Shown piece by piece: positions 20,027-35,527 of a stretch of DNA of 64,000 nt. The translations under genes and the position numbers were made by a program. This DNA comes from Promethearchaeota archaeon (GTDB lineage: Archaea > Asgardarchaeota > Lokiarchaeia > Sigyniarchaeales > SOKP01), in NCBI GenBank assembly GCA_048938895.1, contig JBHLLU010000001.1, positions 32,001 to 96,000 of the forward strand. The letters run 5' to 3'. Positions within the stretch are counted from its first letter, which is position 1; every line of letters begins with the position of its first letter. Below the pieces are notes generated by a model, which was not told the origin of the DNA, made no database searches, and was given only the letters and a program-made list of their open reading frames with translations.

Positions 20027-21223
20027 TTATATTGATTTTCTTATTTGAAGTAATAATAAACCTACTATTAATACTAATGCTCCTGAGCTTATCATGGTGG
20101 AAAATCCCCCATACATATCTATTGACAGACCGAATAACCATATTATTACAGCACCCCCAAATAACCCATTGTGCAGAAAGCTTATAGCAGAAAGAACACT
20201 TGCTCTTTCTAATGAAGAGATGAGTTTGTTAGAGTAACTTTCCTCTAGTAATAATGCAAACTCAGTATTGATTGAAAAGAGAATTAGAAAAATCACTAAT
20301 AGATACCAAATATTCATAAAAGCGATGATAAAGAAAAGACCACCTTGAAATAAAATAATCAAATATAAACTACCAGTAGTTCCTAGTTTTTGTTCAATTT
20401 TACTCACAAAATATGAAGCAAACGCACTGATACCAACTATTATGGTAAATATTATCCCAATAATTGATGGAATTATATCAACTAATTTTAAATGAGCCTG
20501 ACTGAATACATCCCAGTAAGATTCAGCGAAGACATTTGCGATTAAAAAGAAAAATGCTAACCAGAGGAGTTGCTTATTTCTGAATATGTATTGTAAACTT
20601 TTTTTCATATTGCGAGTTAGTATCCTAAAATTGTATTTTTGACTAGATTTAAAAGGCTCTCTAATCATTGCTATAATTAAGAGAGAAAGACTGATTGTTA
20701 TAAACCAAACCCAATAAGGTAATTGAGGTCTAATAACAAATAGAAAACTTCCAAGTGGCATACCTAAAAGATTTGATATTAAAGAAAATGCATTAATACG
20801 TCCACTTATTTTCAAAAATTCATCTTCCCTCTCAAGTTCTTTCATTGTGTCAAATAATAAAGCTGATTTTGCTCCTGATTTAAATGAAAATTCAAGACCA
20901 CTTAAAATTCCTGCTATAACAATAGTTATGATTCCTCCCGAACTCAAATTTAAAAGTAAAATCATTAATAAAGTAAATGAATTTGCAATAAAAACTGTCC
21001 ATTTTCTACCAATCATATCGGCTAAACTACCACTTGGTAAATCTGTTAAAACAATTGCAATTGAGGTACAAGCTTCAAATATTCCAATAGCCGTAAAATT
21101 GAAGCCCAAATACTGAAAAAATAGAATATAAATTGCACTAATTACTCCAAAATTATAGAATACACTAGAAAGTCCAATTTACCAGATATTTGATTTTAAA
21201 TAGATAGAAGAGTCTGAAGACAT
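20027..21223 (-). pseudogene. MFS transporter interrupted by an in-frame TAA at codon 15
   Basis: ATG at 21223 gives MSSDSSIYLKSNIW*IGLSSVFYNFGVISAIYILFFQYLGFNF..., continuous with the 360-aa ORF. Stop at 21179-21181. MFS motif A GSLADMIGRK and many hydrophobic segments. Confidence 0.7.
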
Positions 21224-21244: not shown

Positions 21245-23140
21245 TTACTCTTCTAATTGTTCAATTTCTAAGATGAAAAGATTCGCAATGGTAATCCATT
21301 TCTGTTTTGTTTCCGTATCTAGAGAACTTTTTTCTATTAACTTCATCCCTTCTGTAAGGTACTCGACTGTTCGTTCTAGATCTTTAAGTTCTTTATAACA
21401 AATTCCAAGTTTAATATAGGTTTGAGGAATATACCATTCCTCACTTGCTAATTCTATTGCTGTTAAAAATTCTTCTATAGCATTTTCATACTCTTCAAAA
21501 TACATCAGGATTTCTCCATAAGTATCATGATACATCCCGTTATTGGGAAAGGTCTCTACAAGTTTCGAAATTATGGCAAGGGATTCATCCTTTCTATCCA
21601 AATATTGGAGCCAATAAGCTTTATAACTGATAAGGTCATTCTTTTTTGGATATTTTTCTATTAATTCATCAATAATTTCTAATCCTGCATTTATCTCCTG
21701 CATTCTTCTCAAAACAGATGCCTTTTTCATCCCAATATCAAGTTCTTCTTCTGGGAAAATTTCTAACATTTCATCTAATAGGCTTAAGACCTCATCGAAT
21801 TGATTATAATAGATCAAAATTCTAATTTTTGAATGATATAAGTCAAGATTCTCAGGATCGGATTTAATTTGTTTATCGATTTTCCTAATCTCTTCTATGT
21901 AGTCTTCCTGTAAATCTTCAATAGTTTTAGTTTGAAAAATATCTATCATATCCTGCCAAATAATTCCTTCTAATTTATCATAAGTCTCTTTTAATTCTAC
22001 TTTTGCTTCAATCTTATACGCTAAATAGTTAATGTACTGAGGTAAGAATTTGCGTAATGACTCCTTTAAGTCCTCATGGAACAATAAGCTACAAATATCT
22101 TCTAATATTTCATTTATAGTATTTCTTATATTAAGTGGTCTCGAAAACAATTTATTCAAATAGGTAAATTTAGTGATATAATCTTCTGTTATAGCTCTTA
22201 ACATTATTTCCAGTCTTTCACCCTCCTGAAAATAATAAATCAAATCTCCTGATGAAATTTTGAAAAATTTAATTGGAAAAATTTGATTTTCAATGATCTC
22301 GTCTATATAATAATTTAATTTCGATTCTTTAATTTTAAAAGTTCTTGAAAAGTCTTCTGGAGAGATATAATCAGGATACTGACTTGGATGGTTAATTGAG
22401 ACAAAGAGTAAAATCTTATCGAAATCCTCTTCATTCGTTAGCATTGATTCAACTCTAGTATAATCTAATTTTAACATATTATTTAAAAAGCGAAATTGTA
22501 CATCCTCATCTGAAATATCATATCGTTCGAAAAATTTGATAGTTTTTATAGTTATCTCTTCAATTCTCTTGCTTTCTTCTTCCAATATCGATTGCTTATC
22601 CAAGTCATAATTTTCTAACATCCTAGAATATTCTAATTTACCCGAACGGGTAATTCTGTATTTCTTTTCCTCTTTCTCTATAATTCCTTTATCAAGTAAC
22701 AAATTTATATTCTTAGATAAAGAGGATTGATTTATAGAAAGTGGTTCTGCCAAGAAATCAGCCCATTTGCAATAATTATTATTATAAACCATCCAAAGAA
22801 TCCAATGATCATAATTTCTTCTTCTTTTAATTATTGTAGGAGGATAGCTTAAGGATCTTTTTTTCCCTTTCGATTGAGAAAGTTCAAGATACCTCTTTCT
22901 GCCCTCTGAAGTAATTTTATAATGACCTCTAGAAATATTTTCTACATGACCCCTTCCCTTTAAAAGAGAGAGATATTTTGATAATGTTGATAATCTAAGC
23001 TCAAGTGGTTCTTGAGTGAAATCGGCCCACTCGCATTCATCATTGTTATACACCATCCATAGAATGATATGCTCAAAATTTTTTTTCTCTATTACTGGAG
23101 GTTTATAAATCTCCTTAGGAGGATAATTTACTTTGCTCAT
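21245..23140 (-). CDS. Tandem winged-HTH + C-terminal TPR protein (putative transcription regulator), copy 1
   Basis: Two internal repeats YPP..H.ILWMVYNN..C.WADF..PL.....LSK.L.LL..KG......Y.IT..G+ (wHTH-like). C-terminal TPR-like helices (YHDTYGEILM, YIKLGICY). Confidence 0.8.
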   Translation of the reverse strand: MSKVNYPPKEIYKPPVIEKKNFEHIILWMVYNNDECEWADFTQEPLELRLSTLSKYLSLLKGRGHVENISRGHYKITSEGRKRYLELSQSKGKKRSLSYPPTIIKRRRNYDHWILWMVYNNNYCKWADFLAEPLSINQSSLSKNINLLLDKGIIEKEEKKYRITRSGKLEYSRMLENYDLDKQSILEEESKRIEEITIKTIKFFERYDISDEDVQFRFLNNMLKLDYTRVESMLTNEEDFDKILLFVSINHPSQYPDYISPEDFSRTFKIKESKLNYYIDEIIENQIFPIKFFKISSGDLIYYFQEGERLEIMLRAITEDYITKFTYLNKLFSRPLNIRNTINEILEDICSLLFHEDLKESLRKFLPQYINYLAYKIEAKVELKETYDKLEGIIWQDMIDIFQTKTIEDLQEDYIEEIRKIDKQIKSDPENLDLYHSKIRILIYYNQFDEVLSLLDEMLEIFPEEELDIGMKKASVLRRMQEINAGLEIIDELIEKYPKKNDLISYKAYWLQYLDRKDESLAIISKLVETFPNNGMYHDTYGEILMYFEEYENAIEEFLTAIELASEEWYIPQTYIKLGICYKELKDLERTVEYLTEGMKLIEKSSLDTETKQKWITIANLFILEIEQLEE

Positions 23141-23190
23141 ATATAGTATTAAAACATTTGACTATTTAAATTTCGCGAGCTTTTTTTAAA

Positions 23191-23233
23191 ATTCGAACTT
23201 CATTCGAAGTTTTTTTTCTAAAACTAAATATAG
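23191..23233 (+). promoter_or_regulatory. Operator+promoter copy A: AACTTC-N4-GAAGTT palindrome, 8 nt, then AAAACTAAATATAG (BRE/TATA-like)
   Basis: ATTCGAACTTCATTCGAAGTT-ttttttct-AAAACTAAATATAG; perfect inverted repeat; same spacing in three other copies. Confidence 0.75.
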
Positions 23234-23284
23234 AATTTTTGATATGTTATAATTATAAAAAAACCAAAAAAAAGGTATGAAAAA

Positions 23285-23365
23285 ATGACAAATAAGAAAG
23301 AAGAAACATTGGCTGATTATATTTTACATCCAAAGAAATATGCTTATGGATTAAAAGATCTTTAA
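23285..23365 (+). CDS. Unannotated 26-aa micro-protein MTNKKEETLADYILHPKKYAYGLKDL (family P)
   Basis: AGGT SD-like site upstream and T-tract downstream; clear paralog at 28784-28879. Confidence 0.75.
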   Translation: MTNKKEETLADYILHPKKYAYGLKDL

Positions 23366-23418
23366 ATATTTTTTTTTAATTATTATTTTTTAATAAACTC
23401 ATAAAGAGGTAAGAGAAA

Positions 23419-23496
23419 ATGAATAAAAAAGGAAAAAAGACAAATAAAATAATTATTAAATGCAATACACCTCATCAGAGATTTATAATTTTTTAA
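23419..23496 (+). CDS. Putative 25-aa basic micro-protein MNKKGKKTNKIIIKCNTPHQRFIIF
   Basis: GAGGT SD about 8 nt upstream and T-rich tail; same layout as neighbouring micro-ORFs; no homolog confirmed. Confidence 0.45.
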   Translation: MNKKGKKTNKIIIKCNTPHQRFIIF

Positions 23497-23547
23497 TTTC
23501 ATATTTTTATCAGGCTTACTACCAGATTTTTCATTTCCATATTAAAG

Positions 23548-23575
23548 CCTCCTAGTAGCCTACATTACTAGGAGG
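23548..23575. repeat. Perfect 10-bp inverted repeat CCTCCTAGTA-gcctacat-TACTAGGAGG
   Basis: Read directly; GC-rich hairpin in an AT-rich intergenic region. Confidence 0.8.
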
Positions 23576-23611
23576 TAAAATTTTATCAAAAACTTCTATA
23601 CTTCCCCATTG

Positions 23612-23654
23612 ATTCGAACTTAGATTGAAGTTAATAGAATAAAACTAAATATAG
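23612..23654 (+). promoter_or_regulatory. Operator+promoter copy B
   Basis: ATTCGAACTTAGATTGAAGTT-aatagaat-AAAACTAAATATAG; identical TATA block and spacing to copy A. Confidence 0.75.
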
Positions 23655-23705
23655 GTAACTAACAATACTAATATTAACAAAAAAAAGAAACAAGGTTAGA
23701 AAAAA

Positions 23706-23786
23706 ATGAAAAAAACCGCACAGAAAGGATTAATAAAAATAAATAGTTATGGTCAGAATCATCTTCTGCGAGATTTGCTTAAATAA
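23706..23786 (+). CDS. Putative 26-aa micro-protein MKKTAQKGLIKINSYGQNHLLRDLLK (family Q)
   Basis: ATG lies the same distance after the TATA block as in copy A (about 52 nt); AGGT SD-like site; T-tract after stop; weak similarity to 28626-28724. Confidence 0.55.
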   Translation: MKKTAQKGLIKINSYGQNHLLRDLLK

Positions 23787-23886
23787 TTTTTTTTCAATTC
23801 TAATTTTTATATCTAATTTGTATAATACATGCTCTAAATCCTTATTACATAAATTTGTATAATATTCTTTTTGATAGTATTAAGCT

Positions 23887-23926
23887 AAAATTTTATATTA
23901 CAGTAAATCTAATCTACTATTAATTA
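23887..23926 (+). promoter_or_regulatory. Conserved promoter of GTPase gene, copy 1
   Basis: AAAATTTTATATTA-N6-ATCT-N-ATCT-N4-TTAATTA, matched at 29060-29099. Confidence 0.6.
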
Positions 23927-23966
23927 GATAGTGATAATGTATAATATTTTTCTCTAAATAGAAATA

Positions 23967-24521
23967 ATGACCGATGCTCAAAAATTTCGATTTAAAATTT
24001 CAGTAATAGGCGATGGGCAAGTTGGTAAGACATCCTTAATTAAGAAATTTACACAAGGAACGTTTGAAAAAGATTATGTAAAAACAATTGGAGCCCAATT
24101 CTCTAAATTTGATAAAGAAATCGAAGGAGATGAAATACGGTTGATCTTTTGGGATATTGCGGGTCAGGATGATTTTCTTTTCCTAAGACCCTCATTTTAC
24201 AAGGATAGTGGTGCTGCAATTATTGTTTTTAGCCTTGAAGATAATGATCTTGGTAATCGAAGCTTCGAACATGTACTTAATTGGCATGAGAATTTGAAAA
24301 AATTTTGTGGGGATATACCTATCATCTTATTTGCTAATAAAGTGGATCTCATTGATGAGGAAAATTTTAATGACTCTGAAATTCAAGAAATGGTCAAAGA
24401 AAATAATTTTCTCGGATATTATTTAACTTCTGCAAAAACCGGAGAAAATGTTCATGATGCGTTCAATACCCTTATAGAAAAACTATATTATAAATCTAAA
24501 GCATTAACTAAGGACTTATAA
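23967..24521 (+). CDS. Rab/Ras-like small GTPase
   Basis: G1 GDGQVGKT, G2 YVKTIG, G3 WDIAGQ, G4 NKVD, G5 SAKTG; no C-terminal Cys. Confidence 0.93.
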   Translation: MTDAQKFRFKISVIGDGQVGKTSLIKKFTQGTFEKDYVKTIGAQFSKFDKEIEGDEIRLIFWDIAGQDDFLFLRPSFYKDSGAAIIVFSLEDNDLGNRSFEHVLNWHENLKKFCGDIPIILFANKVDLIDEENFNDSEIQEMVKENNFLGYYLTSAKTGENVHDAFNTLIEKLYYKSKALTKDL

Positions 24522-24533
24522 ATCATTTATATG

Positions 24534-27065
24534 TTAAAAATCAACATCTAGTTGAGCAATATCAGCCATGTAAAGATTCACTATAGCTAGCCACCTCTTT
24601 TTTGTGTCTAAATCACAAAAGCATTTATTAGTGTATTCTTGTCCTTTACTGAGATTTTCAAGTGCTAAGTCAAATTTTTCAAGTTCCTTATAACATATTC
24701 CTAACTTAATAAAAGTCTGATTAATATACCATTCATCACCTGCTAATTCTATTGTCTTTAAAAATTCATTAGCCGCTTTTTCATACTCTTCAAAATTCAT
24801 TAATATTTCTCCATATGTGTCATGATATATCCCCATATCAGGATTGTTCTTTATGAGCTCTTCTATTGTATCTAGGACCAATTCCTTCTCATCCAGATAC
24901 TGTAACCAATAAACTTTATTAAGCATAAGATTGTTATCATTCGGATATTTTTCAAGTAAACTATTTATAATTTCTAAACCGGCTTCAATATTTTTCATTT
25001 CTTTAAGTATGTATGCTTTTTTGATTTTAAGGTTTCTTTCTCCCTCAGGAAACTCAGTAATCAATTTATCTAAGATTATAATGATATCATCGAATTGGTC
25101 AAAATATAATAGGATTCGAATTTTAGAATTATGGAAATCTAGATTGCTAGGATTTAATTTTAGTGCCTGTTCAATTGATTCTAACGCTTCATCATATCGA
25201 TCGAGCTCTAGTAGGACTGTAGTTTTTAGGTGATATAAGTGTGCTTTAATAATATTATTTGACTCTAATTCAATCGCTTTCTCAATATAACTTATCCCAT
25301 CTTCTTTTTCTGCTATTTCTTTATTAAAATCATAAATTTTATTATAACCAAGTACAAACCCTTTTAATCCATAAGAGAGAGCACTTTTAAGGAACGTCTC
25401 CGTTGCTTTATCAGCCATTCTCAACGCATTTTCTATATCCCCCAAAACAATATATGAAAATCCTAAAACAAAAAGACCAGAAATATAGATTTCATCTTCT
25501 TCGGAAACAGAGGATAAATCAATCTTACCTTCCAATAATTCTGTTGTTTCATTATTACGATTCAAGTGGCATAGAATTAGACTTTTAATAATATTAAGAT
25601 CTAAGTCTTTTATTTTCGATTTAGAAGTACCAAAAACCTTTTCTAAATCTACTAACCTCAATGATTTATTATATTCTTCAGATTGGATATACTGTTGGAT
25701 CTTGAAATTTAGTTTTTCTAGTTTGAAAAATGGTTTAAAATACGGTTGTAAAACCTCTAATATTGACTTATCTAAATAATAATTCATTTCACTCTCACTT
25801 ATAAATTGGTATTGACTTTTAGAGATATCAGCTTGTAAAATTTCGGGTATATTTTGCCATATAATACCTTCTAATTTGTCAGCAACACCCATTAATTTCT
25901 TTTCCTTTTCAATTTTATATGCCAAATAATTTATATATTCTGGTAGAAATTTTCTTAAAGAGCTTTTTAATCCTTCATTGAATATATTTTGGCATGCTTC
26001 TTCTAGAATCGCATTTACAGTGGAACTCATATTTAATGGAAGTATTAATTCTGACGAACTTTCAAAAAGTTTGTTTAGATATGTAAATTTTGTGATATGT
26101 TCTTCTGTAATAACTTGAAGCATCTTTTCTAATTTTTCATCAGATTGAAAATAATAAAATTTATCAGGAGGAACAGTTAATTTAAAAAATTTTATAGGAT
26201 AGATCTGATTTTCTACTATTTCATCAATATAATAATCAAGTGTTGTTTGCTTAATCCTATATTTTTCTGAGAATTCCTTAGATGAGATATATGCCGGAAA
26301 CTCATTTGGGTGATTAATAGCAAGAAAAAGTAATATTTTCCTAAAGTTGTCTTCATCTTTTAATACAGACTTAATTTTTTCATATTCTAATCTTAAGACA
26401 CTGTTAAGAAATCGGAATTGAATATTCCTCTCTCTGATCTGAAAGCTATCAATAAATTTTGTAGTTTTTTGGGTAATATCAGCAATCCTTTTAATTTCTT
26501 CTTCAAGTATCGATTGTCTATCTAAGTTATAAAAAGTCAACATTTTTGAATACTGTGTTTTACCAGGTCGCGTAATCCTATATTCTTTATTTTCTTTTGT
26601 TACAAATCCTTTATCCATTAACAAGTTCATATTCTTTGATAATGAAGATTGATTTATCGAAAGTGGTTCTTCAAGAAAATCTGCCCATTTACAATAATTA
26701 TTATTATAAACCATCCATAAGATTGTATGATCATAATTTCTTCTTTCAAGAATAACTTTAGGAGGATAACTTAATTTTCTTTTCCCTTTTTTTGTTTGGC
26801 TTAATTCATAATATCTTTCTCTTCCTTTAGATGTAATCTTATATTCATTGAACTGGCTTTTTAAAATATAACCTTCGCGCTTCAGTTTACCCAAATAAAT
26901 TGATAATGTTGATTTATTTATTTTTTCTTTTAAATCTCCCCAGGAACATGCATCATTGTTACTTAATATCCAAAGTACGATGTATTCATAATTGGGCTTA
27001 CCGATAATAGGATTTAAAATCTCCTCCGGGGGATAATTACAAGAAGTACCCAAATCGTTTACCAT
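24534..27065 (-). CDS. Tandem winged-HTH + TPR protein, copy 2 (longer TPR region)
   Basis: Paralog of 21245-23140 (shared ILWMVYNNNYCKWADFL.EPLSINQSSLSKN, YINYLAYKIE, YHDTYGEILM) with about 210 extra residues, mostly TPR-like. Confidence 0.8.
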   Translation of the reverse strand: MVNDLGTSCNYPPEEILNPIIGKPNYEYIVLWILSNNDACSWGDLKEKINKSTLSIYLGKLKREGYILKSQFNEYKITSKGRERYYELSQTKKGKRKLSYPPKVILERRNYDHTILWMVYNNNYCKWADFLEEPLSINQSSLSKNMNLLMDKGFVTKENKEYRITRPGKTQYSKMLTFYNLDRQSILEEEIKRIADITQKTTKFIDSFQIRERNIQFRFLNSVLRLEYEKIKSVLKDEDNFRKILLFLAINHPNEFPAYISSKEFSEKYRIKQTTLDYYIDEIVENQIYPIKFFKLTVPPDKFYYFQSDEKLEKMLQVITEEHITKFTYLNKLFESSSELILPLNMSSTVNAILEEACQNIFNEGLKSSLRKFLPEYINYLAYKIEKEKKLMGVADKLEGIIWQNIPEILQADISKSQYQFISESEMNYYLDKSILEVLQPYFKPFFKLEKLNFKIQQYIQSEEYNKSLRLVDLEKVFGTSKSKIKDLDLNIIKSLILCHLNRNNETTELLEGKIDLSSVSEEDEIYISGLFVLGFSYIVLGDIENALRMADKATETFLKSALSYGLKGFVLGYNKIYDFNKEIAEKEDGISYIEKAIELESNNIIKAHLYHLKTTVLLELDRYDEALESIEQALKLNPSNLDFHNSKIRILLYFDQFDDIIIILDKLITEFPEGERNLKIKKAYILKEMKNIEAGLEIINSLLEKYPNDNNLMLNKVYWLQYLDEKELVLDTIEELIKNNPDMGIYHDTYGEILMNFEEYEKAANEFLKTIELAGDEWYINQTFIKLGICYKELEKFDLALENLSKGQEYTNKCFCDLDTKKRWLAIVNLYMADIAQLDVDF

Positions 27066-27216
27066 CAAAAAATCTTTTCTTATAATTAGTATATACGACA
27101 GGTTTATTTATATATTTTGATCAAAACTCTAATTAGAGTTAAATAAATGCTACTATTAATGGATTATATAAAAGGGGAATAGAATTAAAATGTGGGTATT
27201 ATCTAAAAAAATCTAG

Positions 27217-27254
27217 AACTTCATTTGGAGTTCCTTTAAATGAACTAAAAAGTA
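27217..27254 (+). promoter_or_regulatory. Operator+promoter copy C
   Basis: AACTTC-attt-GGAGTT-cctttaaa-TGAACTAAAAAGTA; same 4-nt and 8-nt spacers. Confidence 0.6.
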
Positions 27255-27374
27255 ACCGCTAAATTCTTAAAAAAAGCTTAAATTTTAATGTATTTTCAAT
27301 TTTAAGCTGGCCCATATAAAAATCTTCTGTTTTTGAAATCCTTAAAAATAAATTTCACTATAATTTAATTGATA

Positions 27375-27695
27375 ATGGCAAGCTTTACTTCTAGAGCTCA
27401 TTTAAGCGATTTTAAATATGCAGTTAAAATAATATCTGATTGTAGAGATAATTGGCTTCAGGATCAATTTCCAAATATTGACCAATTATTGTATGATTAT
27501 GGTTTAATAGATATTACTGGCAAAATTCAAGATTTTAAATCATATTACCAATTCAGAGATGCTCTTGATCATTTAACAGATTATAATTTCATTCGGATTT
27601 TCATCGATTCTAGATCAATTCCTCGAATTTACCAAGGAGGAAGAGAGATTCCAAATAACTTTACTTTTGATGATTACTGGTCAAGAAATGATTAA
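27375..27695 (+). CDS. Hypothetical protein (~106 aa)
   Basis: ORF downstream of operator copy C; no recognisable motif. Confidence 0.55.
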   Translation: MASFTSRAHLSDFKYAVKIISDCRDNWLQDQFPNIDQLLYDYGLIDITGKIQDFKSYYQFRDALDHLTDYNFIRIFIDSRSIPRIYQGGREIPNNFTFDDYWSRND

Positions 27696-27834
27696 TTCTT
27701 AGTTTAACAATTTTTCAAAAATATTGAAATTTTACCTTTTTGTATATAATCCAATTCTACTTCTAAGATCCAAACTCATATTAAACATCAATATCTTAGG
27801 TAATTGGATGTTTAAACATCTAAAACTAATCTTG

Positions 27835-27872
27835 GACTCCTTTTGAACTTCGTGAGCTTAAACTATAAATGA
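27835..27872 (+). promoter_or_regulatory. Operator+promoter copy D (degenerate)
   Basis: GACTCC-tttt-GAACTT-cgtgagct-TAAACTATAAATGA; same spacers, and the ATG at 27924 is again about 52 nt downstream. Confidence 0.55.
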
Positions 27873-27923
27873 AACCTTGGGTTAAGTAATCTTAGCAATA
27901 AAAAAAGAGAGTGATAATGAGAA

Positions 27924-28181
27924 ATGACACAAATAATTGCAAAGGAAGATACTCCTGTTGAACTTGAAGATTTACATATAATTCTGGCGAAACGCAAATT
28001 GAAACTTAAAACCAAGATCACTGAAGAAACTAAAAAACAACAATGCGAACTGTATGAATTATTTAAAGAATTTAATCCAAACTACTTTGAAGAAGCAATT
28101 CCAGTCAAAAATGCACTTGATAAGCTTTATACTTCAGATATCAAATTCAGATCTACATTCGATTTTTCTAGGATGTACTAA
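27924..28181 (+). CDS. Hypothetical protein (85 aa)
   Basis: GAGTGA SD-like site; follows promoter D. Confidence 0.6.
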   Translation: MTQIIAKEDTPVELEDLHIILAKRKLKLKTKITEETKKQQCELYELFKEFNPNYFEEAIPVKNALDKLYTSDIKFRSTFDFSRMY

Positions 28182-28215
28182 TATATTTGAATTAAAATTG
28201 AGAGGTGGTTGAAAT

Positions 28216-28479
28216 ATGGTTCAAGTATATATTAAGAAAAATGAATTGGAAAAACCGTATAAAATTGAAGAAATAATAATATATGAAGAACTCCCTGCTG
28301 AAAAGGAAGAGTATAGGGTAACAAGAGTCAAAGCAGAGGAGAAACCAGTTAAAAAAGCTTTGCGTAGGCTCATAGAGAAAGCAAAGTATAATCCGAAATA
28401 TATAGAAGAAACTTTTCTTATGGAAAAATTGAGAAGAGATATTCATAAGAATTATTATCGAAACTACGGAATCTACTAA
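28216..28479 (+). CDS. Hypothetical highly charged protein (87 aa)
   Basis: GAGGTG SD upstream; K/E-rich ORF co-oriented with neighbours. Confidence 0.65.
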   Translation: MVQVYIKKNELEKPYKIEEIIIYEELPAEKEEYRVTRVKAEEKPVKKALRRLIEKAKYNPKYIEETFLMEKLRRDIHKNYYRNYGIY

Positions 28480-28553
28480 AAATCGTTTTATTCTCATCAC
28501 GCTGATTCAATTCATCCGACAAGCCGAAGTAGTAAAGTCAGGGAGAAATCAGG

Positions 28554-28580
28554 GGAGGGGGATCTTTAAAATCCCCCTCC
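28554..28580. repeat. Perfect 10-bp inverted repeat GGAGGGGGAT-ctttaaa-ATCCCCCTCC
   Basis: Read directly; ends a GC-richer intergenic patch at 28495-28580. Confidence 0.8.
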
Positions 28581-28625
28581 ATTACAAAAAATTTGATATA
28601 TATTAAAATAAAAAAAGGAGGGCGA

Positions 28626-28724
28626 ATGAAAATGAAAAAGAAAAAATTGGAGAGAATTGAAAGGATTAAGATAAGGAACGATCTTGAAGAGCATAAGCTC
28701 CTAATTAATCGTATAATTAAATGA
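28626..28724 (+). CDS. Putative 30-32-aa micro-protein MKMKKKKLERIERIKIRNDLEEHKLLINRIIK (family Q?)
   Basis: GGAGGG SD at 28617-28622, T-tract after stop, weak similarity to 23706-23786 (basic N-terminus, IKI, H.LL, C-terminal hydrophobic-hydrophobic-K). Confidence 0.55.
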   Translation: MKMKKKKLERIERIKIRNDLEEHKLLINRIIK

Positions 28725-28783
28725 TTAATTTTTTCACATTTTTGAAAAATTATATATATACATTTAAATTAGAGGTAAAAAAA

Positions 28784-28879
28784 ATGCCAAAAAAGAAAGA
28801 AAAAGCATTGGATGCTACATTAACAGATTTGCTTTTAAATCCAAAGAAATATAAATTTGGATTAAAAGACCTACACTAA
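28784..28879 (+). CDS. Unannotated 31-aa micro-protein MPKKKEKALDATLTDLLLNPKKYKFGLKDLH (family P)
   Basis: GAGGT SD and T-tract terminator; shares KKE..TL.D..L.PKKY..GLKDL with 23285-23365. Confidence 0.75.
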   Translation: MPKKKEKALDATLTDLLLNPKKYKFGLKDLH

Positions 28880-29059
28880 AAAAATTTTTTTTTTATATTT
28901 ACTTTTAATGAATTAAGGATTAAGTATTTATGACAATCTTGTCAACGTTTAAATATTAGTATAAGGAGGCATAAGCCTAATAAATATTCGGGGAAATTTA
29001 TAGAAATAGAACTTCTTTAACTATTTCTTACAGTTTCCAGTAATAATTCGTTATAAACC

Positions 29060-29099
29060 AAAATTTTATATTAAAAAATATCTGATCTTAGTTTAATTA
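29060..29099 (+). promoter_or_regulatory. Conserved promoter of GTPase gene, copy 2
   Basis: AAAATTTTATATTA-N6-ATCT-N-ATCT-N4-TTAATTA, matched at 23887-23926. Confidence 0.6.
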
Positions 29100-29149
29100 C
29101 TTATTTTTTATAAAGAATATATTCCAAGTAATTTTCCCCTAAAAGATCT

Positions 29150-29713
29150 ATGAGTGAAGACGGGCGTAGGTTTAGGTTTAAAATAACGGTAATCGGAGAT
29201 GGTAGAGTAGGAAAGACTACTCTTATTAGGAGGTACACTCAAGGATCATTTAAAAAGGATTATGTTAAGACAATTGGGGCACAATTTTCAGTATATGATA
29301 ATGAAATTGGAGGAGATAAAGTCCGACTAATATTTTGGGATATTGCGGGACAAGATACGTTTCACTTCTTAAGACCTTCATTTTTTAGCAATAGTAAAGG
29401 AGCAATTATTGTATATAGTCTTGAAGACAATAAACACGGACATGATAGTTTTGACCACATCTCAATTTGGGATGAAGATATAAAAAAACACTGTGGTGAG
29501 ATTCCTGTTGTTTTATTTGCAAACAAAGTAGATTTAGTGGATGAATCTAATATAGATCAATCCGTCCTAAAAGAAATTGTCGAGGAGAATGGTTATCTTG
29601 GATATTATATAACTTCAGCAAAAACAGGAAAGGGAGTGTTTACAGCTTTCAATATTTTAATAGAAAATTTGTATAAATCGTCCAAAGCATTATCTCTTGA
29701 ATTACAAGATTAG
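29150..29713 (+). CDS. Rab/Ras-like small GTPase
   Basis: GDGRVGKT, YVKTIG, WDIAGQ, NKVD, SAKTG. Confidence 0.93.
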   Translation: MSEDGRRFRFKITVIGDGRVGKTTLIRRYTQGSFKKDYVKTIGAQFSVYDNEIGGDKVRLIFWDIAGQDTFHFLRPSFFSNSKGAIIVYSLEDNKHGHDSFDHISIWDEDIKKHCGEIPVVLFANKVDLVDESNIDQSVLKEIVEENGYLGYYITSAKTGKGVFTAFNILIENLYKSSKALSLELQD

Positions 29714-29866
29714 AATAGAACCAAAACTATTTCTTTCTTATTTCAAATTGTATATATTAGACTTACTAGACTTTTTATTCAAAAGCTTTATAATGTTTTA
29801 TACCTAGATTATGTTCATAAAATATTTTTTTAAAAACTTCATATTCCGAATTTCCAAGAAAAATTT

Positions 29867-30418
29867 ATGAAGGATATAAGTTTTGTTTTTAAAATTGTTG
29901 TTATAGGGGATGGAAGAGTAGGGAAAACTACACTAATTCAAAAATTTACAAAAAGCACCTTTAAGGAAGAATATATAAAAACAATTGGTGCCGATCTCTC
30001 AAATTACGATTATGTAATTGACAACGACAAAATTAGACTTCAATTCTGGGATATTGCAGGGCAAGATAAGTTTCATTTCTTACGTCCTTCATTTTTTAAC
30101 AAAAGTAGAGCAGGAATTATTGTTTATAGCCTTGAGGACAATAAACTTGGTCAAGAGAGTTTTAAGAATATCCCAAATTGGTATGCTGAAATCAAGAAAT
30201 ATTGTGGGGATATCCCAATTATTATTTTTGCTAATAAGGCAGATTTAGTAGAGTTTTCTCAAGTAGATGAAACCCCTATCCAAGAATTTGTTAAGGAAAA
30301 TAAATTGCTTGGTTATAAAATTACATCAGCTAAAACAGGAGAGGGAGTCATTGATGCTTTTAATACAATTATCAAAAATTTGTATGATAAATTTAAATCT
30401 CTTTCCGAAAATAGTTAA
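29867..30418 (+). CDS. Rab/Ras-like small GTPase
   Basis: GDGRVGKT, YIKTIG, WDIAGQ, NKAD, SAKTG. Confidence 0.93.
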   Translation: MKDISFVFKIVVIGDGRVGKTTLIQKFTKSTFKEEYIKTIGADLSNYDYVIDNDKIRLQFWDIAGQDKFHFLRPSFFNKSRAGIIVYSLEDNKLGQESFKNIPNWYAEIKKYCGDIPIIIFANKADLVEFSQVDETPIQEFVKENKLLGYKITSAKTGEGVIDAFNTIIKNLYDKFKSLSENS

Positions 30419-30553
30419 TTTTTTCTTAAATCTTTATCATTTTCATGCATTTTTCCAAAAAATACTATCATCGAATGCAATCCTTTATATATATAAAAAA
30501 ATAATATCAATTAATTTCAAATTAATTTTGTGCGAAATCAAAGAGGTGCTATT

Positions 30554-30784
30554 ATGGTAAATATTGAAATTGACGTCGTTAATAAACCTACAAATAGATT
30601 CAGAATTGAGCAGTATTTTGGGACACCAGTTGCTAATGAAATATTTCAATGTCTTCAACAACATATTGGTTTGTCTGCATCACAAGCAGAAGCACAACTA
30701 AGAGCTTCAATCCAAAGAACAGCAAATGCTATAGCAAAGGAAGATGAAATTATCACAATTATGGGATTTATAACTGTAGGTTAA
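30554..30784 (+). CDS. 76-aa small protein ending MGFITVG, candidate RiPP precursor 1
   Basis: GAGGTG SD before ATG 30554; paralog of 30853-31086; upstream of a B12-rSAM gene. Confidence 0.75.
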   Translation: MVNIEIDVVNKPTNRFRIEQYFGTPVANEIFQCLQQHIGLSASQAEAQLRASIQRTANAIAKEDEIITIMGFITVG

Positions 30785-30852
30785 AAATCCTTTATAAAAG
30801 GTTGAAAATATTAATCTAATTAAAATTAAGTACACTTCAATGAGGTGTTGAA

Positions 30853-31086
30853 ATGTCAATCAACGCAGATAAAGTAAAGAAAAAATCAAATAGAAAAAGA
30901 CTTGATAGATTCTTCGGCAGAGATAAAGCACAAACGATTATAGATTGCTTACAAGATTGTGTAAATCAAGGGAAATCAAGTGCTGATATGGGGGATTGTG
31001 TAAAAAATTGTCTTATCCAAAAAGGATTCAGCGCGTCTAAAGCCGATGAAGCAGTCAGTCTCATGGGTTTCATAACAGTAGGTTAA
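30853..31086 (+). CDS. 77-aa small protein with two CxxxC motifs ending MGFITVG, candidate RiPP precursor 2
   Basis: GAGGTG SD; shared pattern D.V.K..NR.R....FG...A..I..CLQ ... DE....MGFITVG. Confidence 0.78.
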   Translation: MSINADKVKKKSNRKRLDRFFGRDKAQTIIDCLQDCVNQGKSSADMGDCVKNCLIQKGFSASKADEAVSLMGFITVG

Positions 31087-31140: not shown

Positions 31141-33378
31141 TTGATCCCTGAATCTATAGATTTATTAATGATTTTTCCTTCAGGAGGGGATATTTATCAA
31201 ACAAATTTCAATCACCACCTAGGAACAGCATATATAATAGGTTATGTAAGGAAACATGGATTTAAAGCTAAACAGTTTTTATCAAACACCCAATATAATG
31301 TTAGAGAATGTGTTAAATCAATTTTCCAATACAATCCAAAAGTAATAGGGTTTACTGTTTATGAAAGCAATTATATGCAATCAGTTTTACTGTCGACTTT
31401 CATAAAAAAAGAAAAGCCTAATATTATTATAATTTTTGGGGGTCCTACTCCGACTATTCACTCTGAATACTTATTAAAACAAGTCAACAGTATTGATCTC
31501 TGTGTAAGACAAGAAGGTGAAGAAACTGTACTTGAAATTTTAAAAGAATTACAGAGTGTCAATTATACTATATCAAGAGCCAATTTTACTGAAATTAAAG
31601 GTATAATCTATAGAATTAAAGATCAAATCTTCAAAAATCCTGATAGTGACTACCTTTATTCAAAAAGACATATTAGGAATTACATTGATAAATATCCCTC
31701 TCCATACCTTTCTGAAATTATCCCTAAAAGTAAAGCTTTTCCCATAGGGATACTTACGGGAAGAGGATGTAATCAGTCTTGTACGTATTGTAACTGTGCT
31801 GTTTTAAGTAAAAAGAACATATATTTTCATTCAATAGGGAGAGTAATTGAAGAACTAGAATTTATTAGTCAACAAGAGAAATTTTCACATCCCATTCCTA
31901 TATATGATGATGCTTTTACAATAATTCCTTCACGAGCGAAAAAAATTTGCGAAACTATCATTGAAAAGGACATAAAAATTCCGTTATTATGTATTACTCG
32001 CTGTGATAAACTAAATGAAGAATTATTAGACCTTATGAAAATGGCAGGTTTCAAATCAATCGGTTTTTCTTTAGAGAGTGCTGTACCGAGAGTATTGAGA
32101 GCTATTGGTAAGGTTAGACCTGTGGATGTTGGCGATCCGCTGGATTTTGATAAAGAAGTTGAATACATTGAGAAATTAAAGCACATGACAAAGTATGCAA
32201 AAGAGATTGGGATGTTTCCTGTCTTTTTAAGTATTATGATTGGACTGCCTGGTGAATCCCTAAAAGATGCACAAAAAACCTTAGAAATGATAAAACAATT
32301 AGAAATTGACTATTATACTCACAATCTACTACATATTTTTAAAGGTACACCTTTATTTCAAGATCATGGCAAATATGGTTACAAAATTACCCCTATGGGT
32401 AAAAATAATCAAGTATTCACGATAAACAATTATCCATTTGATATAACAAAAATACATTTAGCTGACAACTCTACTAAAGAAAGGAATAGTAAGGTTATGG
32501 ATTATGATGTTTTTAATATTATATCTTTAAGATATATTCAAAAAGATTCAGAATCTCTTTTTTTCAAAAACATTATTATTGATAAAGATATAATTGAGCC
32601 CTCGTTAGTAAAATGGATGCAGGATATACTTGCAATTAATGGTATAATTATACATTTATATTCAAGCAAAAAGAATTATTTAAAATTCCATGAAAAAAAC
32701 GAAATGACCCTCTATAACGAATATTCTCCAACTAAAACATACGAATGTTACTATTGGGAAAATTTAGATAGGAGTCAACGATTAAAATCTGGCAGATTGC
32801 TTACTTATGGCGAGAAGGTAGGATTAAATATTGAAGTTAAAAGCACTGGTCTCGCTTTGGAAGAATATAATAAAGGATATAACACTGATTGTTTTATTGG
32901 GGCAAGCAGAACGAAAAATGATTCAGATTCTCTATATAAACTATTCCAAGAAATATCGAATGCGGAAAATAGTTTCAATTATTTATTAGACAATAACGCT
33001 CTCCCTCATTTCCAGAATCTATGTAGATGGATCAAAAATCAGGCAAATTGTGAGAAACTAGAAACAGTTATAGTTGATAAAAATAATTCCATTCGATTTT
33101 GTTGGCATTCAAGTCCAGTAGGAAAAGTTGGAATGCGCTTTTCTGAAATTAAAAGAAAGATAAATGACTTAAAAAAACAAGTAATAAAAATTAGAGGCTG
33201 TTATCAATGTAGTCAAGAACAATCTTGTCAATTATGTTTATCCCCTTTTCCTTTATCATCAAAAGAATATTGTGAGTACAAAATTTCTCAAGATACTAAT
33301 ACACCTGCCAATTTAATAAATGTATTTTATGTGATAAAAGATTTATTTTACAAACCAATTAATCCATATGATTTCTGA
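31141..33378 (+). CDS. Cobalamin-binding radical SAM enzyme with C-terminal SPASM-like Cys cluster
   Basis: B12 domain (LGTAYI, IGFTV, GGPTPT, EGEE); CxxxCxxC = CNQSCTYC; GLPGES; C-terminal RFCW..PVG and CYQCSQEQSCQLC. Confidence 0.85.
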   Translation: MIPESIDLLMIFPSGGDIYQTNFNHHLGTAYIIGYVRKHGFKAKQFLSNTQYNVRECVKSIFQYNPKVIGFTVYESNYMQSVLLSTFIKKEKPNIIIIFGGPTPTIHSEYLLKQVNSIDLCVRQEGEETVLEILKELQSVNYTISRANFTEIKGIIYRIKDQIFKNPDSDYLYSKRHIRNYIDKYPSPYLSEIIPKSKAFPIGILTGRGCNQSCTYCNCAVLSKKNIYFHSIGRVIEELEFISQQEKFSHPIPIYDDAFTIIPSRAKKICETIIEKDIKIPLLCITRCDKLNEELLDLMKMAGFKSIGFSLESAVPRVLRAIGKVRPVDVGDPLDFDKEVEYIEKLKHMTKYAKEIGMFPVFLSIMIGLPGESLKDAQKTLEMIKQLEIDYYTHNLLHIFKGTPLFQDHGKYGYKITPMGKNNQVFTINNYPFDITKIHLADNSTKERNSKVMDYDVFNIISLRYIQKDSESLFFKNIIIDKDIIEPSLVKWMQDILAINGIIIHLYSSKKNYLKFHEKNEMTLYNEYSPTKTYECYYWENLDRSQRLKSGRLLTYGEKVGLNIEVKSTGLALEEYNKGYNTDCFIGASRTKNDSDSLYKLFQEISNAENSFNYLLDNNALPHFQNLCRWIKNQANCEKLETVIVDKNNSIRFCWHSSPVGKVGMRFSEIKRKINDLKKQVIKIRGCYQCSQEQSCQLCLSPFPLSSKEYCEYKISQDTNTPANLINVFYVIKDLFYKPINPYDF

Positions 33379-33481: not shown

Positions 33482-35527
33482 ATGGAATCCATTATTAAAC
33501 CAGAGGAATATCTTCAAGCTGAAGAATTGATTTACCAGGCAAAATTTGATGATGCACTTGAATTGATCTCAAATTTCAAAAGAAGCACAAAAAAAGATTC
33601 TATGGAGTGGCTCTGGGGCTTAATATTAGAGGGAAGAATAAACTGCTATAAAGGTCAATATAAAAGAGCTATAGAAATTGGGAATATTGCTTATCTTCTT
33701 AGCCGAAAATTGGACCTTGTCCTTGAATCAGTGGAAGCTCTTCTAATCAGGGCTCATATAATATATTTAGCTAAAAGAGAAGAAGCTTTTGAAATTATCA
33801 CTTTAGCTGAAAAAATTTTCAATTCGCTTCTTAATGATTCTACGTCTAATTATCCTCGACAAAAAGCAGAAATTCTATTATTAAAATCTGAAATCTATCG
33901 TTCGAGGGGTGAACTTAATGAAGCATTTGAACTAGCTCGAGAATGTTTACTAATACAACAAAATCTAAAAAATAAAATTGATATTTCAAACGTTTATTAT
34001 CACTTAGCAAACCTATATCTTTACAATAGTGATTCTAATTCAGGTTTAGAATACGCATTGAAAAGTTTAACAATTCAAGAAGAACTTGGTTATCAGTCAG
34101 GAATTGCAGGTAGTTTGTACTTAGTAGGTACAAGTTATTTTGTTAGAGGTAACTTTGATCAAGCTTTGAAATTAGGGCGACAAAGTCTAAAGAGCAAAGA
34201 AATTAGCACTCTTACAAAACTCGAAGTATTAGATCTATTAGCAATGGTCTTTTTAGTCACTGGTCAATTAGATAGGGCATTAAAATATCGTAAAAGAGCA
34301 GCTATTATAGCTCAGAAAGAAAACTACGAGGAACAGTATATAATAAGTACTTATGGAATTGCAACAAATTTAAGAGCTAAAGGTGAATTTGATCTGGCTG
34401 TAGATTATCTTAAGAAAAGTTTGAAATTATCTGAAAATACAAATTCTACATTTGGGATAATGGCTTCACTTTTTCATCTAATTCTTACGACTCTTGATAA
34501 CAATAATCCTGAACAAGCTAAATTTTACTTGAGTCAGTTAGAAAAATATTGTGATCAAACAGAGAGTGATGTATTTAAAAATGTATATTTAATTTCAAAA
34601 GCATTAGTGTTAAAAAATAGTGGAAGAATTCGAAATCTTTCAGAAGCAGAAATAATACTGAGGGGGTTTACTGAAAAAGAAATTGAAACACCTCTTATAT
34701 ATCGATTAGCAATGGTCAATTTATGTGAACTTTTCTTAGAAGAACTAAAATTTACAAATAATGTTGAAGTTTTAGAGGATATTATTCCCTTAATTAACAA
34801 AATTTATAAGATTGCAGAGAAACAAAGTGCATATGCTTGGCTGGTGGAAATTAAAATATTGCAGGCAAAAATTTCCTTAATTCAAATGGATTTTGATGCC
34901 GCAGAACAATTATTAACTCAAGCTCAACGAATCGCAGAATTACAAGGTCTCACACTGTTAGCACTAAAAATATCTAGTGAACATGATAATTTACTGAACC
35001 AATTGAGTGAATGGAATAATCTTAAAAAAATAGACGCTCCTATGTCAGAGCGAATAGAGTTAGCTTCTTTTGATGGGGTTGTAGAACGATTACAAGGAAA
35101 AAGCACAATTGATCCTCCTTTAATAACTCCTGAAACTCCTGTATTGCTCCTTATTATTGGTCAGGGTGGATTCCCCTTATTTTCCAATCAATTTGAAGAG
35201 GGACATCAATTTGAAGAAGATCTTCTTAGTGGTTTTTTAGATGCAATTAATTCATTTAGTGGAGAACTTCTTTCTAAACAATTGGATCGTGTTAAATTTG
35301 AAGATTATATGATACTTATGCAAACCGTGGAGAACTTTTCTGTAGGGTATTTATTCAAAGGACAAACTTACATTGCTAAACAAAAATTAACTCAATTTAC
35401 AGAAAGTATTAAGAAAGATTCCACAATATGGCATACCTTAAATGTTTATTTCAACACAAGTCGGGTAGTAAAATTAGAGGATTTACCTTCTCTTCAAGCT
35501 TTAATCTTTAATATTTTTATTAAGTGA
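33482..35527 (+). CDS. TPR-repeat protein with C-terminal longin/roadblock-like domain
   Basis: Multiple TPR-like repeats (e.g. GNFDQALKL, GEFDLAVDYLKKSL). C-terminal LLIIGQGGFPLFS..F...DLLSGFLDAINSFSGEL resembles longin-like domains. Confidence 0.75.
   Translation: MESIIKPEEYLQAEELIYQAKFDDALELISNFKRSTKKDSMEWLWGLILEGRINCYKGQYKRAIEIGNIAYLLSRKLDLVLESVEALLIRAHIIYLAKREEAFEIITLAEKIFNSLLNDSTSNYPRQKAEILLLKSEIYRSRGELNEAFELARECLLIQQNLKNKIDISNVYYHLANLYLYNSDSNSGLEYALKSLTIQEELGYQSGIAGSLYLVGTSYFVRGNFDQALKLGRQSLKSKEISTLTKLEVLDLLAMVFLVTGQLDRALKYRKRAAIIAQKENYEEQYIISTYGIATNLRAKGEFDLAVDYLKKSLKLSENTNSTFGIMASLFHLILTTLDNNNPEQAKFYLSQLEKYCDQTESDVFKNVYLISKALVLKNSGRIRNLSEAEIILRGFTEKEIETPLIYRLAMVNLCELFLEELKFTNNVEVLEDIIPLINKIYKIAEKQSAYAWLVEIKILQAKISLIQMDFDAAEQLLTQAQRIAELQGLTLLALKISSEHDNLLNQLSEWNNLKKIDAPMSERIELASFDGVVERLQGKSTIDPPLITPETPVLLLIIGQGGFPLFSNQFEEGHQFEEDLLSGFLDAINSFSGELLSKQLDRVKFEDYMILMQTVENFSVGYLFKGQTYIAKQKLTQFTESIKKDSTIWHTLNVYFNTSRVVKLEDLPSLQALIFNIFIK

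Follow-up and report, generated by a model that had tools for sequence, protein, structure and literature searches.

What does a large DNA-binding protein control when its gene stands back to back with genes for very small proteins and, beyond these, with a gene for a Rab-like GTPase? The question is raised by a 64,000-nucleotide stretch of DNA, referred to here as the window, from a Promethearchaeota archaeon (GenBank assembly GCA_048938895.1, contig JBHLLU010000001.1, positions 32,001 to 96,000 of the forward strand). It holds two such arrangements in tandem: cassette A, with the regulator gene regA and the GTPase gene GTP1, and cassette B, with regB, GTP2 and GTP3. In each, the regulator combines winged helix-turn-helix (wHTH) domains with tetratricopeptide repeats (TPR), and a divergent region containing micro-open reading frames (micro-ORFs) lies between it and the GTPase gene (Table 1). 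A preliminary description of the region had claimed that the unit of regulator, micro-ORFs and GTPase is duplicated, and this is confirmed by the ORFs and their domains; the unit is kept by relatives, and the tandem order of A plus B is kept in the close ones (loci L065, L069, L074 and L083). The explanation preferred here, to which a probability of about one half is given, is that the regulators are a lineage-specific family of local transcription factors with a regulon of micro-protein genes, the micro-proteins being outputs of the circuit.

Regulators, operators and micro-protein genes

The regulators match the winged-helix families HTH_45, HTH_34 and MarR of Pfam; for HTH_45 in regA the score is 34.8 bits (cut-off 25.5), while regB reaches 32.8 bits for HTH_34 (cut-off 27) and 31.9 for HTH_45 (cut-off 25.5). 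The order of the domains is given by an AlphaFold2 (AF2) model of regA, built on 41 homologues and with a mean predicted local distance difference test score (pLDDT) of 79.3. Two wHTH units (residues 22-88 and 110-178), with the succession helix-helix-helix-strand-strand, are followed by a long helix, a third winged-helix-like unit (212-305) and a helical region (309-379); a disordered linker (380-407) then leads into twelve TPR-type helices (407-630). The two regulators are 45% identical over 644 columns, regB having some 210 additional TPR residues. The family occurs in all 24 sister genomes of the genus, with 3-13 matches each, and in one (that with locus L026) of 16 genomes that belong to the same order but to other families. 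Five copies are present in the window's own genome, two on contig C125 and one each on C15, C9 and C107. The Asgard, Loki-type lineage that had been proposed for this DNA agrees with the labels of the relatives, which are mostly Promethearchaeota/Promethearchaeia, with a minority of other Asgard phylum labels and one bacterial label. On the contig L142, which is labelled as a Nanopelagicaceae bacterium metagenome-assembled genome, a regulator shares 60% identity with regA; mis-binning of an archaeal contig is the probable explanation.

The operator consensus is an 18-bp palindrome, GAACT-N8-AGTTC, with GAACTTC-N4-GAAGTTC as its regA-type form. It is present in 12 of 12 regA-type loci of relatives (0-3 mismatches), at 52-87 nucleotides (nt) from the regulator start codon. 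About 8 nt beyond the palindrome, on the divergent side, comes a box, AAAACTA(A/T)ATA, which is read as the B recognition element (BRE) and TATA box of the divergent promoter; a scripted pattern for this box, AAACTAAATATA, was found within about 10 nt after the palindrome in 7 of the 12 loci, and a similar box was read by eye elsewhere. Since a TATA-like box of regA flanks the palindrome on its other side, the palindrome would lie between two promoters about 50 bp apart, if both boxes are rightly assigned. A repeat search of the window placed copies of one palindrome family (D6) at 23188, 23609 and 27209. Operator B1 (AACTCTAATTAGAGTT) is common to regB and four distinct orthologue loci (L065, L069, L074 and L083), and its 14-mer core occurs once in the 4.65-Mb genome. 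Operators of the regA and regB types keep the outer GAACT/AGTTC and differ in the inner bases, as would be expected if the recognition helices of the paralogues had diverged.

It is clear that the recurrence of the palindrome exceeds chance. With at most one mismatch, GAACTTC-N4-GAAGTTC has four sites in the 4.65-Mb genome, two of them in the cassettes, against 0-1 for other spacings. At three of the four sites the box follows at the canonical distance and then a small ORF, on the fitting strand at the two sites outside the window; the fourth is the second site of regB. The ORFs at the three sites are pepA1, a 29-residue ORF at C41:3790 and a 66-residue ORF at C152:44722. The first of the two distant ORFs (MRKNKALSVREKAELKVFNEGYNPRLFNR) has a Shine-Dalgarno (SD) site, ends in ..GYNPRLFNR and is followed by a T-tract; the second contains ..ERHPIFQDL.., has only a weak SD-like site (by eye) and has a 72-residue paralogue nearby.

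The micro-genes share one anatomy: an operator, the box, about 55 nt, an SD site of the GGAGG/GAGGT type, ATG, 24-31 codons and an oligo-T tract. In the family to which pepA1 and pepB5 belong, termed PKKY here, the C-terminus carries the motif NP(K/E)K(Y/F)xFGxKDL. The back-translated pattern gave 47 matches in 54 genomes, compared with 3 for the reversed control, and in 44 of the 47 ORFs the stop codon falls at most one residue past the motif. An SD-like site is present at all but about one of 23 short ORFs from relatives (by hand count, at the chosen start) and at both window copies. Outside the searched motif, differences at codon positions 1, 2 and 3 number 1464, 1009 and 1808, and indels among the copies are in frame. 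This includes pepA1, whose start lies 145 nt from regA, and pepB5, which are 79-86% alike with a 12-nt in-frame indel between them (repeat offsets 5499 and 5511). Translation of the micro-ORFs, on which the preliminary description depended, is very probable from the motif count against the control, the placement of the stops, the SD sites, the codon-position pattern and the in-frame indels. Next to regA-type regulators these ORFs are regular, an SD-led micro-ORF of 25-30 residues being present at 10 of the 12 loci with the operator; the same expectation fails for part of the family as a whole, since at 28 of 53 regulator loci no small protein of this kind could be detected within 3.9 kb.

The core of a second micro-protein family, termed IKIxN (pepA2, pepA3, pepB4 and the ORF on C41), is [IL]-[IL]-K-[IV]-x-N, frequently with NP/HP-x-F after it; the family alternates with the PKKY family in many cassettes. 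Homologues of pepA3 were found in L002, L003 and L012 at 54-77% identity, and of pepB4 in L069, L074 and L083 at 74-84%. The operators, micro-peptides and GTPase promoters of the two cassettes had been described as paralogous, and this is borne out by the D6 palindromes, by the pepA1/pepB5 pair and by a further repeat family, D8, in which the GTPase promoter regions (23881-23950 and 29054-29123) are 70% identical over 70 nt. The "several tiny ORFs" of that description are present, but the 2-kb region of cassette B also holds orf108, orf85 and orf87, whose conserved products have 85-108 residues.

It could be argued that the micro-ORFs have no function as proteins and that they represent small RNAs or translated leaders, regulating only the downstream GTPase gene in cis. 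Such a role would suit the oligo-T tract that ends every unit upstream of the GTPase gene, and the stable hairpins in both intergenic regions. However, the amino acid motif is conserved through synonymous codon changes and also ends proteins of 75-95 residues, units are found far from any GTPase, the GTPase genes are served by their own promoter regions and the region has no match to an Rfam family; this explanation is considered highly improbable. The two hairpins, at 23547-23576 (-18.4 kcal/mol, z = -5.2) and 28554-28581 (-23.9 kcal/mol, z = -2.7), lie in AT-rich intergenic regions and their stems contain CCTCC/GGAGG.

Micro-genes are not confined to the surroundings of a regulator, 17 of 39 motif loci having none within 6 kb. 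Four of nine regulator-distant motif genes nevertheless keep an operator (2-4 mismatches) and a box at -83 to -117, and the micro-genes thus behave as a regulon of the regulator family. This behaviour fits outputs and autoinduced ligands alike. In a third regulator subfamily, typified by the copy on C9, direct GGAACT repeats replace the palindrome, and on the divergent side there are genes for secreted or membrane proteins about 220 residues long; no micro-ORFs were seen for this subfamily in the 23 loci inspected. Such loci include C9:4624-10145 in the window's own genome, L119-L130, L136, L162 and L167, and on C9 the genes for the ~220-residue proteins are followed by those for a 654-residue TPR protein and a GTPase.

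From their sequences, the micro-proteins look like the short members of a lineage-specific superfamily with the core [L/Y]-N-P-x(1-2)-[Y/F]. The PKKY C-terminal module also terminates proteins of 75-95 residues, and some 30-31-residue forms (MK..KDKWKYS..) retain the WKxS element of these long forms, which suggests an origin by truncation. The PKKY family is narrow, since its long-form profile found only 50 proteins at E ≤ 1e-3 among 1.84 billion representatives. The products of orf85 and orf87 are demonstrably homologous by sequence comparison; jackhmmer merges them, with N59 and Y62 invariant, and their cores, LNPRYFEE and YNPKYLEE respectively, resemble the LLNPKKYKFG of the micro-proteins. 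A common origin of the PKKY, IKIxN and orf85/87 families appears likely. Homologues of orf87 stand divergently beside the regulators on C15 and C107 and also in L026, the one positive genome outside the genus.

An AF2 model of the orf87 product, of low confidence (mean pLDDT 54.9), has a helix-turn-helix around the NP site. Neither Pfam nor NCBIfam gave anything above threshold for the small proteins. In the ESM Atlas there was no usable match for orf87, and the matches for orf108 were all below 0.9 and had no common family; in a sequence search of the PDB the orf85/87 profile gave one chance-level match (E 0.0087, syntaxin-binding protein 3) and the PKKY profile none. A 104-residue database protein with a PKKY tail (P0022) was considered as a possible wHTH fusion and set aside as evidence, its N-terminal MarR_2 match being sub-threshold (E 0.021) and similarity to regA being absent; it may be a real fusion, or a gene-calling artefact such as an over-extended call. 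In the regB orthologues of L065, L069, L074 and L083 the first divergent neighbour is a short orf85-like gene (58-75 residues, ..LLGDLNPRYFEE..); the 300 nt between regB and orf108 in the window (27069-27368) contain no such ORF, so that it has apparently been lost here. The PKKY long form (76-94 residues) has conserved synteny at C37:39250-39585 of the window's own genome and in L063, L076, L077, L078 and L081; the 296-residue product of the gene divergent from it is presumably an AbrB/PhoU-type regulator, a name taken from reading the sequence only.

Pairing of the regulators with Rab-like GTPases

The three GTPases match Pfam Ras at E values of 2e-39 to 2e-42. The GTP-binding motifs are present (P-loop, switch I Thr, DxxGQ, NKxD and SAK), and in an alignment of 28 sequences G16, G21, K22, T23, D64, Q68, N125, K126, D128, S156 and A157 are invariant. 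The C-terminal cysteine prenylation motif of eukaryotic Rab proteins is absent, the ends being ..ALTKDL, ..LSLELQD and ..SLSENS, with no Cys.

For the comparison of neighbourhoods, 53 regulator loci were used whose upstream sequence extends for 3.9 kb or more. Within that distance on the divergent side, a GTPase of this subfamily was found at 31 of the 53, a small protein of the described families at 25 and both at 20; within 1.5 kb, a superfamily member was found at 27 of 61 regulator loci. Pairwise distances between regulators correlate with those between GTPases (r = 0.76), a value as high being reached in 0 of 2000 permutations, and the nearest relative of each GTPase adjoins the same regulator type in 27 of 27 cases.

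A pairing of types that is this stable across species would be expected if the TPR of the regulator bound the neighbouring GTPase in a nucleotide-dependent manner, the state of the switch setting transcription of the micro-protein genes and the micro-proteins being effectors or modulators of the GTPase. The 31 loci with a divergent GTPase are also in favour of such coupling, since by a rough estimate, made from the 10 copies at least 45% identical to GTP1 in the 4.65-Mb genome, a chance GTPase neighbour would be found at less than 1% of genes. The GTP-binding residues are conserved, and TPR proteins act as effectors of Ras-like GTPases elsewhere, as SgmX does with MglA and p67phox with Rac. 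On the other hand, a divergent GTPase is missing at 22 of the 53 loci, and none adjoins the C15 or the C107 regulator; the nearest on C15 is 11 kb away, and C107 ends about 490 nt upstream of the regulator. Furthermore, co-inheritance alone could explain the correlation; kinship by itself can yield it, and what is seen is therefore a stable unit and not an interaction. Coupling of the regulator to the GTPase is regarded as conceivable but doubtful. A prediction of the complex of regB (residues 180-844), GTP2 and pepB5, each with its alignment, scored 0.00 against a mark of 0.32; it had no controls and counts neither way.

GTPase genes with partner genes beside them have been described before. 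In the parts of the sources available, these are the prokaryotic Ras-like modules of MglA with MglB and further partners (PMC13408092, 10.1101/2022.03.17.484758) and, in Asgard archaea, neighbourhoods with ESCRT genes and an operon of LAMTOR1-like, Rab-like and DENN genes (10.1101/2020.10.19.343400). According to the available part of the latter preprint, conserved neighbourhoods are lacking for most Asgard eukaryotic-signature genes, a few exceptions being listed; that part does not mention the neighbourhood of the cassettes. As far as these excerpts go, the MglA and LAMTOR1-like/Rab-like/DENN modules resemble the cassettes in having a small Ras- or Rab-like GTPase gene beside lineage-specific partner genes; they differ in that the cassettes have, in place of such partners, micro-protein genes and an operator together with a TPR regulator of the DNA-binding kind. 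No match to Roadblock, longin or DENN turned up in the scanned proteins of the cassettes.

Possible peptide sensing and the downstream radical-SAM genes

The layout of the cassettes recalls the bacterial RRNPP systems, such as PlcR/PapR, Rgg/SHP, ComR/ComS, NprR, Rap/Phr and AimR/AimP. In PlcR/PapR and Rgg/SHP a TPR regulator is accompanied by a palindromic box and then the promoter of a short peptide gene; the mature RRNPP signal derives from the C-terminus of the peptide, and in autoinducing systems the peptide genes are targets of their own receptor. By analogy, as had been proposed, the peptides would bind the TPR and tune transcription; in the form considered here, a micro-protein or its C-terminal dozen residues would switch the regulator, which would activate the peptide gene, and the peptide would act inside the cell, or after export by some route. 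The analogy holds for the layout: here too a regulator with DNA-binding domains in its N-terminal part has its TPR at the C-terminus, a peptide gene adjoins the regulator gene, a palindromic box stands directly before the promoter of the peptide gene and the peptide is best conserved at its extreme C-terminus. As to a joint diversification of receptor and peptide, the first divergent small gene differs in kind between regulator subfamilies (PKKY-short or IKIxN with regA, short orf85-like with the regB orthologues, orf87 with the C15/C107 type), which counts in favour, whereas the PKKY motif itself hardly varies across them.

The analogy does not hold for the kind of TPR, for an XRE-type HTH or for export. 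The names Rap, NprR, PlcR, Rgg, ComR and AimR are absent from the 16 Pfam matches of regA and the 25 listed for regB, and the regulator TPR, among the Foldseek matches listed through rank 49, retrieves generic TPR proteins (consensus TPR, OGT, APC/C, Tom70, MamA and Pex5) and no RRNPP chain. The DNA-binding domains are winged helices by Pfam, two to three of them in an archaeal protein, where RRNPP regulators have one XRE-type HTH. The preliminary description had noted that hydrophobic signal sequences are lacking, and the peptides indeed have no hydrophobic segment; the 25 short forms examined are hydrophilic, rich in K, D and E, and without an export signal. No conserved transporter lies near the cassettes, the only neighbouring one, a major facilitator superfamily (MFS) gene at 20027-21109, recurring at no other locus and matching nothing but the window's own copy. 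The PKKY motif is nearly invariant across regulator subfamilies and closes the 75-95-residue proteins as well, the 17 motif loci mentioned above have no regulator within 6 kb, and the C9-type subfamily has no micro-ORFs. An RRNPP-like autoinduction is, on balance, unlikely. Slightly less likely still is its extended form, an archaeal peptide autoinduction in which the NP(K/E)K(Y/F)xFGxKDL module, free, processed or exported, would be the TPR ligand and drive a positive loop through GAACT-N8-AGTTC, coupled to the GTPase and, in some genomes, to a radical-SAM-modified peptide.

The cassette had been thought to end at 30418, but the unit runs on into a pair of precursor-like ORFs and a B12-binding radical S-adenosylmethionine (SAM) enzyme, and into a gene for a TPR protein; the cassette first described thus supplies the regulator and GTPase section of a conserved neighbourhood of greater extent. 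Of 41 genomes searched, 11 have the radical-SAM gene (10 of the 24 of the genus), always as a single copy. In 9 of these 11 a regulator has it on its divergent side, no more than 5 kb away; in the remaining genomes the gene is split across contig ends (G008) or could not be judged (G004). Directly upstream of it, in 10 of 10 loci of relatives, are one or two ORFs of 75-92 residues, similar in the N-terminal region in most copies and with hydrophobic ends (MGFITVG, GHWVTVG, GYWVTAG or SFVIVG). B12-binding and radical-SAM domains with a precursor-like ORF upstream constitute a class B arrangement like that for peptides synthesised by the ribosome and modified after translation (RiPPs), and by NCBIfam the enzyme is similar to RiPP C-methyltransferases and ApyD, in all cases below the cut-offs. 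In 5 of the 10 loci the precursor ORF is preceded by a PKKY-long gene, and in 3 of these an orf87-type ORF, whole or fragmentary, stands between the two; in 2 further loci it is preceded by an orf87-type gene alone.

These observations admit the explanation that the regulator serves a RiPP-like pathway, the small proteins being substrates or accessory factors of the enzyme and their production being under the regulator. The single-copy gene near a regulator in 9 of 11 genomes, the constant precursor-like ORF, preceded in 7 loci by a PKKY-long or orf87-type gene, and the sub-threshold likeness to RiPP enzymes would all fit. Yet regulators are found in all 24 genomes of the genus and the enzyme in only 10 of them, a radical-SAM gene is missing from cassette A and from most of the others, and the micro-proteins show no sequence relationship to the precursor-like ORFs. 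This explanation is held to be quite improbable. In the available part of the source, streptococcal loci of radical-SAM RiPPs are under Rgg/SHP control (PMC12322106), and the resemblance, a TPR regulator, short peptide genes, a precursor and a radical-SAM gene in one neighbourhood, counts towards the RRNPP-like explanation. Compared with what that excerpt gives, the enzyme here is a 745-residue B12-binding one (class B type), found in 10 of 24 sister genomes; of the several copies of the regulator it accompanies only one, with genes for Rab-like GTPases between them.

The family of the 681-residue TPR protein downstream has 14 copies or paralogues in the window's genome. Its C-terminal region of about 120 residues, without a family match, contains ..LSGFLDAINSF.., and a similar stretch, ..ISGFLTAILD.., is found in the gene just downstream of the C15 regulator. 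It is suspected that this region is a GTPase-partner domain, a prediction made from the sequence.

Table 1. Features of the two cassettes and the genes that follow them, in window coordinates
Feature	Position	Strand	Description
regA	21245..23140	-	631 aa; two wHTH and TPR by Pfam; domain order by AF2 model
candidate regA TATA box	23163..23172	-	ATTTAAATA; ~25-33 nt upstream of regA ATG; putative assignment
operator 1	23195..23212	.	GAACTTC-ATTC-GAAGTTT; palindrome between two divergent promoters
BRE/TATA-like box of pepA1 unit	23220..23233	+	AAAACTAAATATAG; 7 nt past operator 1; same box after palindrome in relatives
pepA1	23285..23365	+	26 aa; ends in NPKKYAYGLKDL; SD site; T9 tract 23369-23377
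pepA2	23419..23496	+	25 aa; GAGGT SD site; weak candidate, homologue only in L002 (64% identity)
operator 2	23616..23633	.	GAACTTAGATTGAAGTTA; 2 mismatches; then AAACTAAATATA at 23642-23653
pepA3	23706..23786	+	26 aa; IKIxN family; T8 tract at 23787
GTP1 promoter region	23881..23950	+	paralogous to 29054-29123 (family D8)
GTP1	23967..24521	+	184 aa; Pfam Ras 2.2e-41
regB	24534..27068	-	844 aa; regA paralogue; extra TPR block
operator B1	27125..27140	.	AACTCTAATTAGAGTT; perfect 16-bp palindrome; second palindrome of regB
operator B2	27216..27233	.	GAACTTCATTTGGAGTTC; regA-type palindrome copy in cassette B
orf108	27369..27695	+	108 aa, conserved; no family match; six homologues, all in regB-type cassettes
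orf85	27924..28181	+	small protein; LNPxYFEE core
orf87	28216..28479	+	small protein; YNPKY(I/L)EE core; orf85 homologue
pepB4	28626..28724	+	32 aa; IKIxN family
pepB5	28784..28879	+	31 aa; pepA1 paralogue; T10 tract at 28885
GTP2	29150..29713	+	Ras/Rab-like; promoter region 29054-29123
GTP3	29867..30418	+	Ras/Rab-like by Pfam Ras
two precursor-like ORFs	30530..31086	+	84 and 77 aa; both end in MGFITVG
B12-binding radical-SAM enzyme	31141..33378	+	745 aa; Pfam B12-binding 8.8e-15, Radical_SAM 1.9e-16
MalT-like TPR protein	33482..35527	+	681 aa; family recurs in many regulator loci

A proposed local transcription factor with a regulon of micro-proteins

The reading of the micro-proteins as outputs is favoured by the hydrophilic peptides, the absence of an exporter, the invariant motif, which also stands on larger proteins, the motif loci that have no regulator, the C9-type subfamily and the generic TPR. 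According to this reading the regulator, in which a helical middle part links the tandem winged helices to a C-terminal TPR serving as the sensor, would bind the 18-bp GAACT-N8-AGTTC palindrome, probably as a dimer, as the conservation and position of the site suggest. The site would lie between the regulator promoter and the divergent promoter, about 8 nt before the BRE/TATA, which is the location of an upstream activator; both the binding and the activation are inferred. Archaeal wHTH factors of the Lrp/Ptr2 activator type act from sites upstream of BRE/TATA. The likeness to them lies in the palindromic site directly before BRE/TATA and in the divergent layout implying autoregulation; the difference is that the wHTH of the cassettes is in tandem and fused to a large TPR, and that the targets are genes of 24-31 codons. 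The direct targets would be the self-contained micro-genes, from operator through BRE/TATA, the ~55-nt spacer, SD site and ORF to oligo-T, and the micro-proteins would most likely be intracellular outputs acting with the adjacent, co-inherited Rab-like GTPase rather than secreted signals. A WH2/thymosin-like actin-binding motif, GoLoco, FxFG and MIM motifs and a PTS1-like C-terminal signal were considered and dropped.

Several points weigh against this reading. That a micro-protein gene is a target of the regulator leaves room for its product to be the ligand as well. The kinship of the PKKY, IKIxN and orf85/87 families is drawn from a very short shared core that has no statistical support. 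Within 3.9 kb, a divergent GTPase is missing at 22 of the 53 regulator loci and no small protein of the superfamily could be detected at 28, and the C9-type regulators, with their GGAACT repeats, have secreted proteins as their targets. The correlation between regulators and GTPases would also be expected from plain co-inheritance of duplicated segments. The strict form GAACT-N8-AGTTC is not enriched in the genome, with 5 sites as against 1-8 for other spacings, and the GTPase genes have their own promoters, at which there is no recognisable palindrome.

In full-text searches of the literature no paper was found on the regulator family, the micro-proteins or the cassette, although families of this kind could be listed in the supplementary asCOG tables of 10.1101/2020.10.19.343400; the module is real and, as it seems, undescribed in print. 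What is unusual in it is a conserved regulon of proteins of 24-31 residues together with the stable pairing with a Rab-like GTPase in an Asgard genus.

Small GTPases are very numerous in Asgard archaea, and next to nothing is known of how they are regulated or of their partners; to our knowledge no peptide-sensing transcription circuit has previously been known in archaea. If the micro-proteins were ligands of the regulator, peptide-based gene control would extend to archaea, and peptide autoinduction here, if true, would be the first peptide-sensing transcription circuit of that domain, in the lineage closest to eukaryotes. A subfamily of Rab-like GTPases in stable partnership with a wHTH-TPR regulator, a defined operator and a set of micro-proteins contrasts with the scarcity of conserved neighbourhoods reported in the available part of the earlier survey (10.1101/2020.10.19.343400). 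The system offers concrete handles in its 18-bp site, its 28-residue peptides and its soluble domains. In this lineage, conserved proteins of 24-31 residues, possibly missed by gene callers, form a gene family that appears from its promoters to be regulated.

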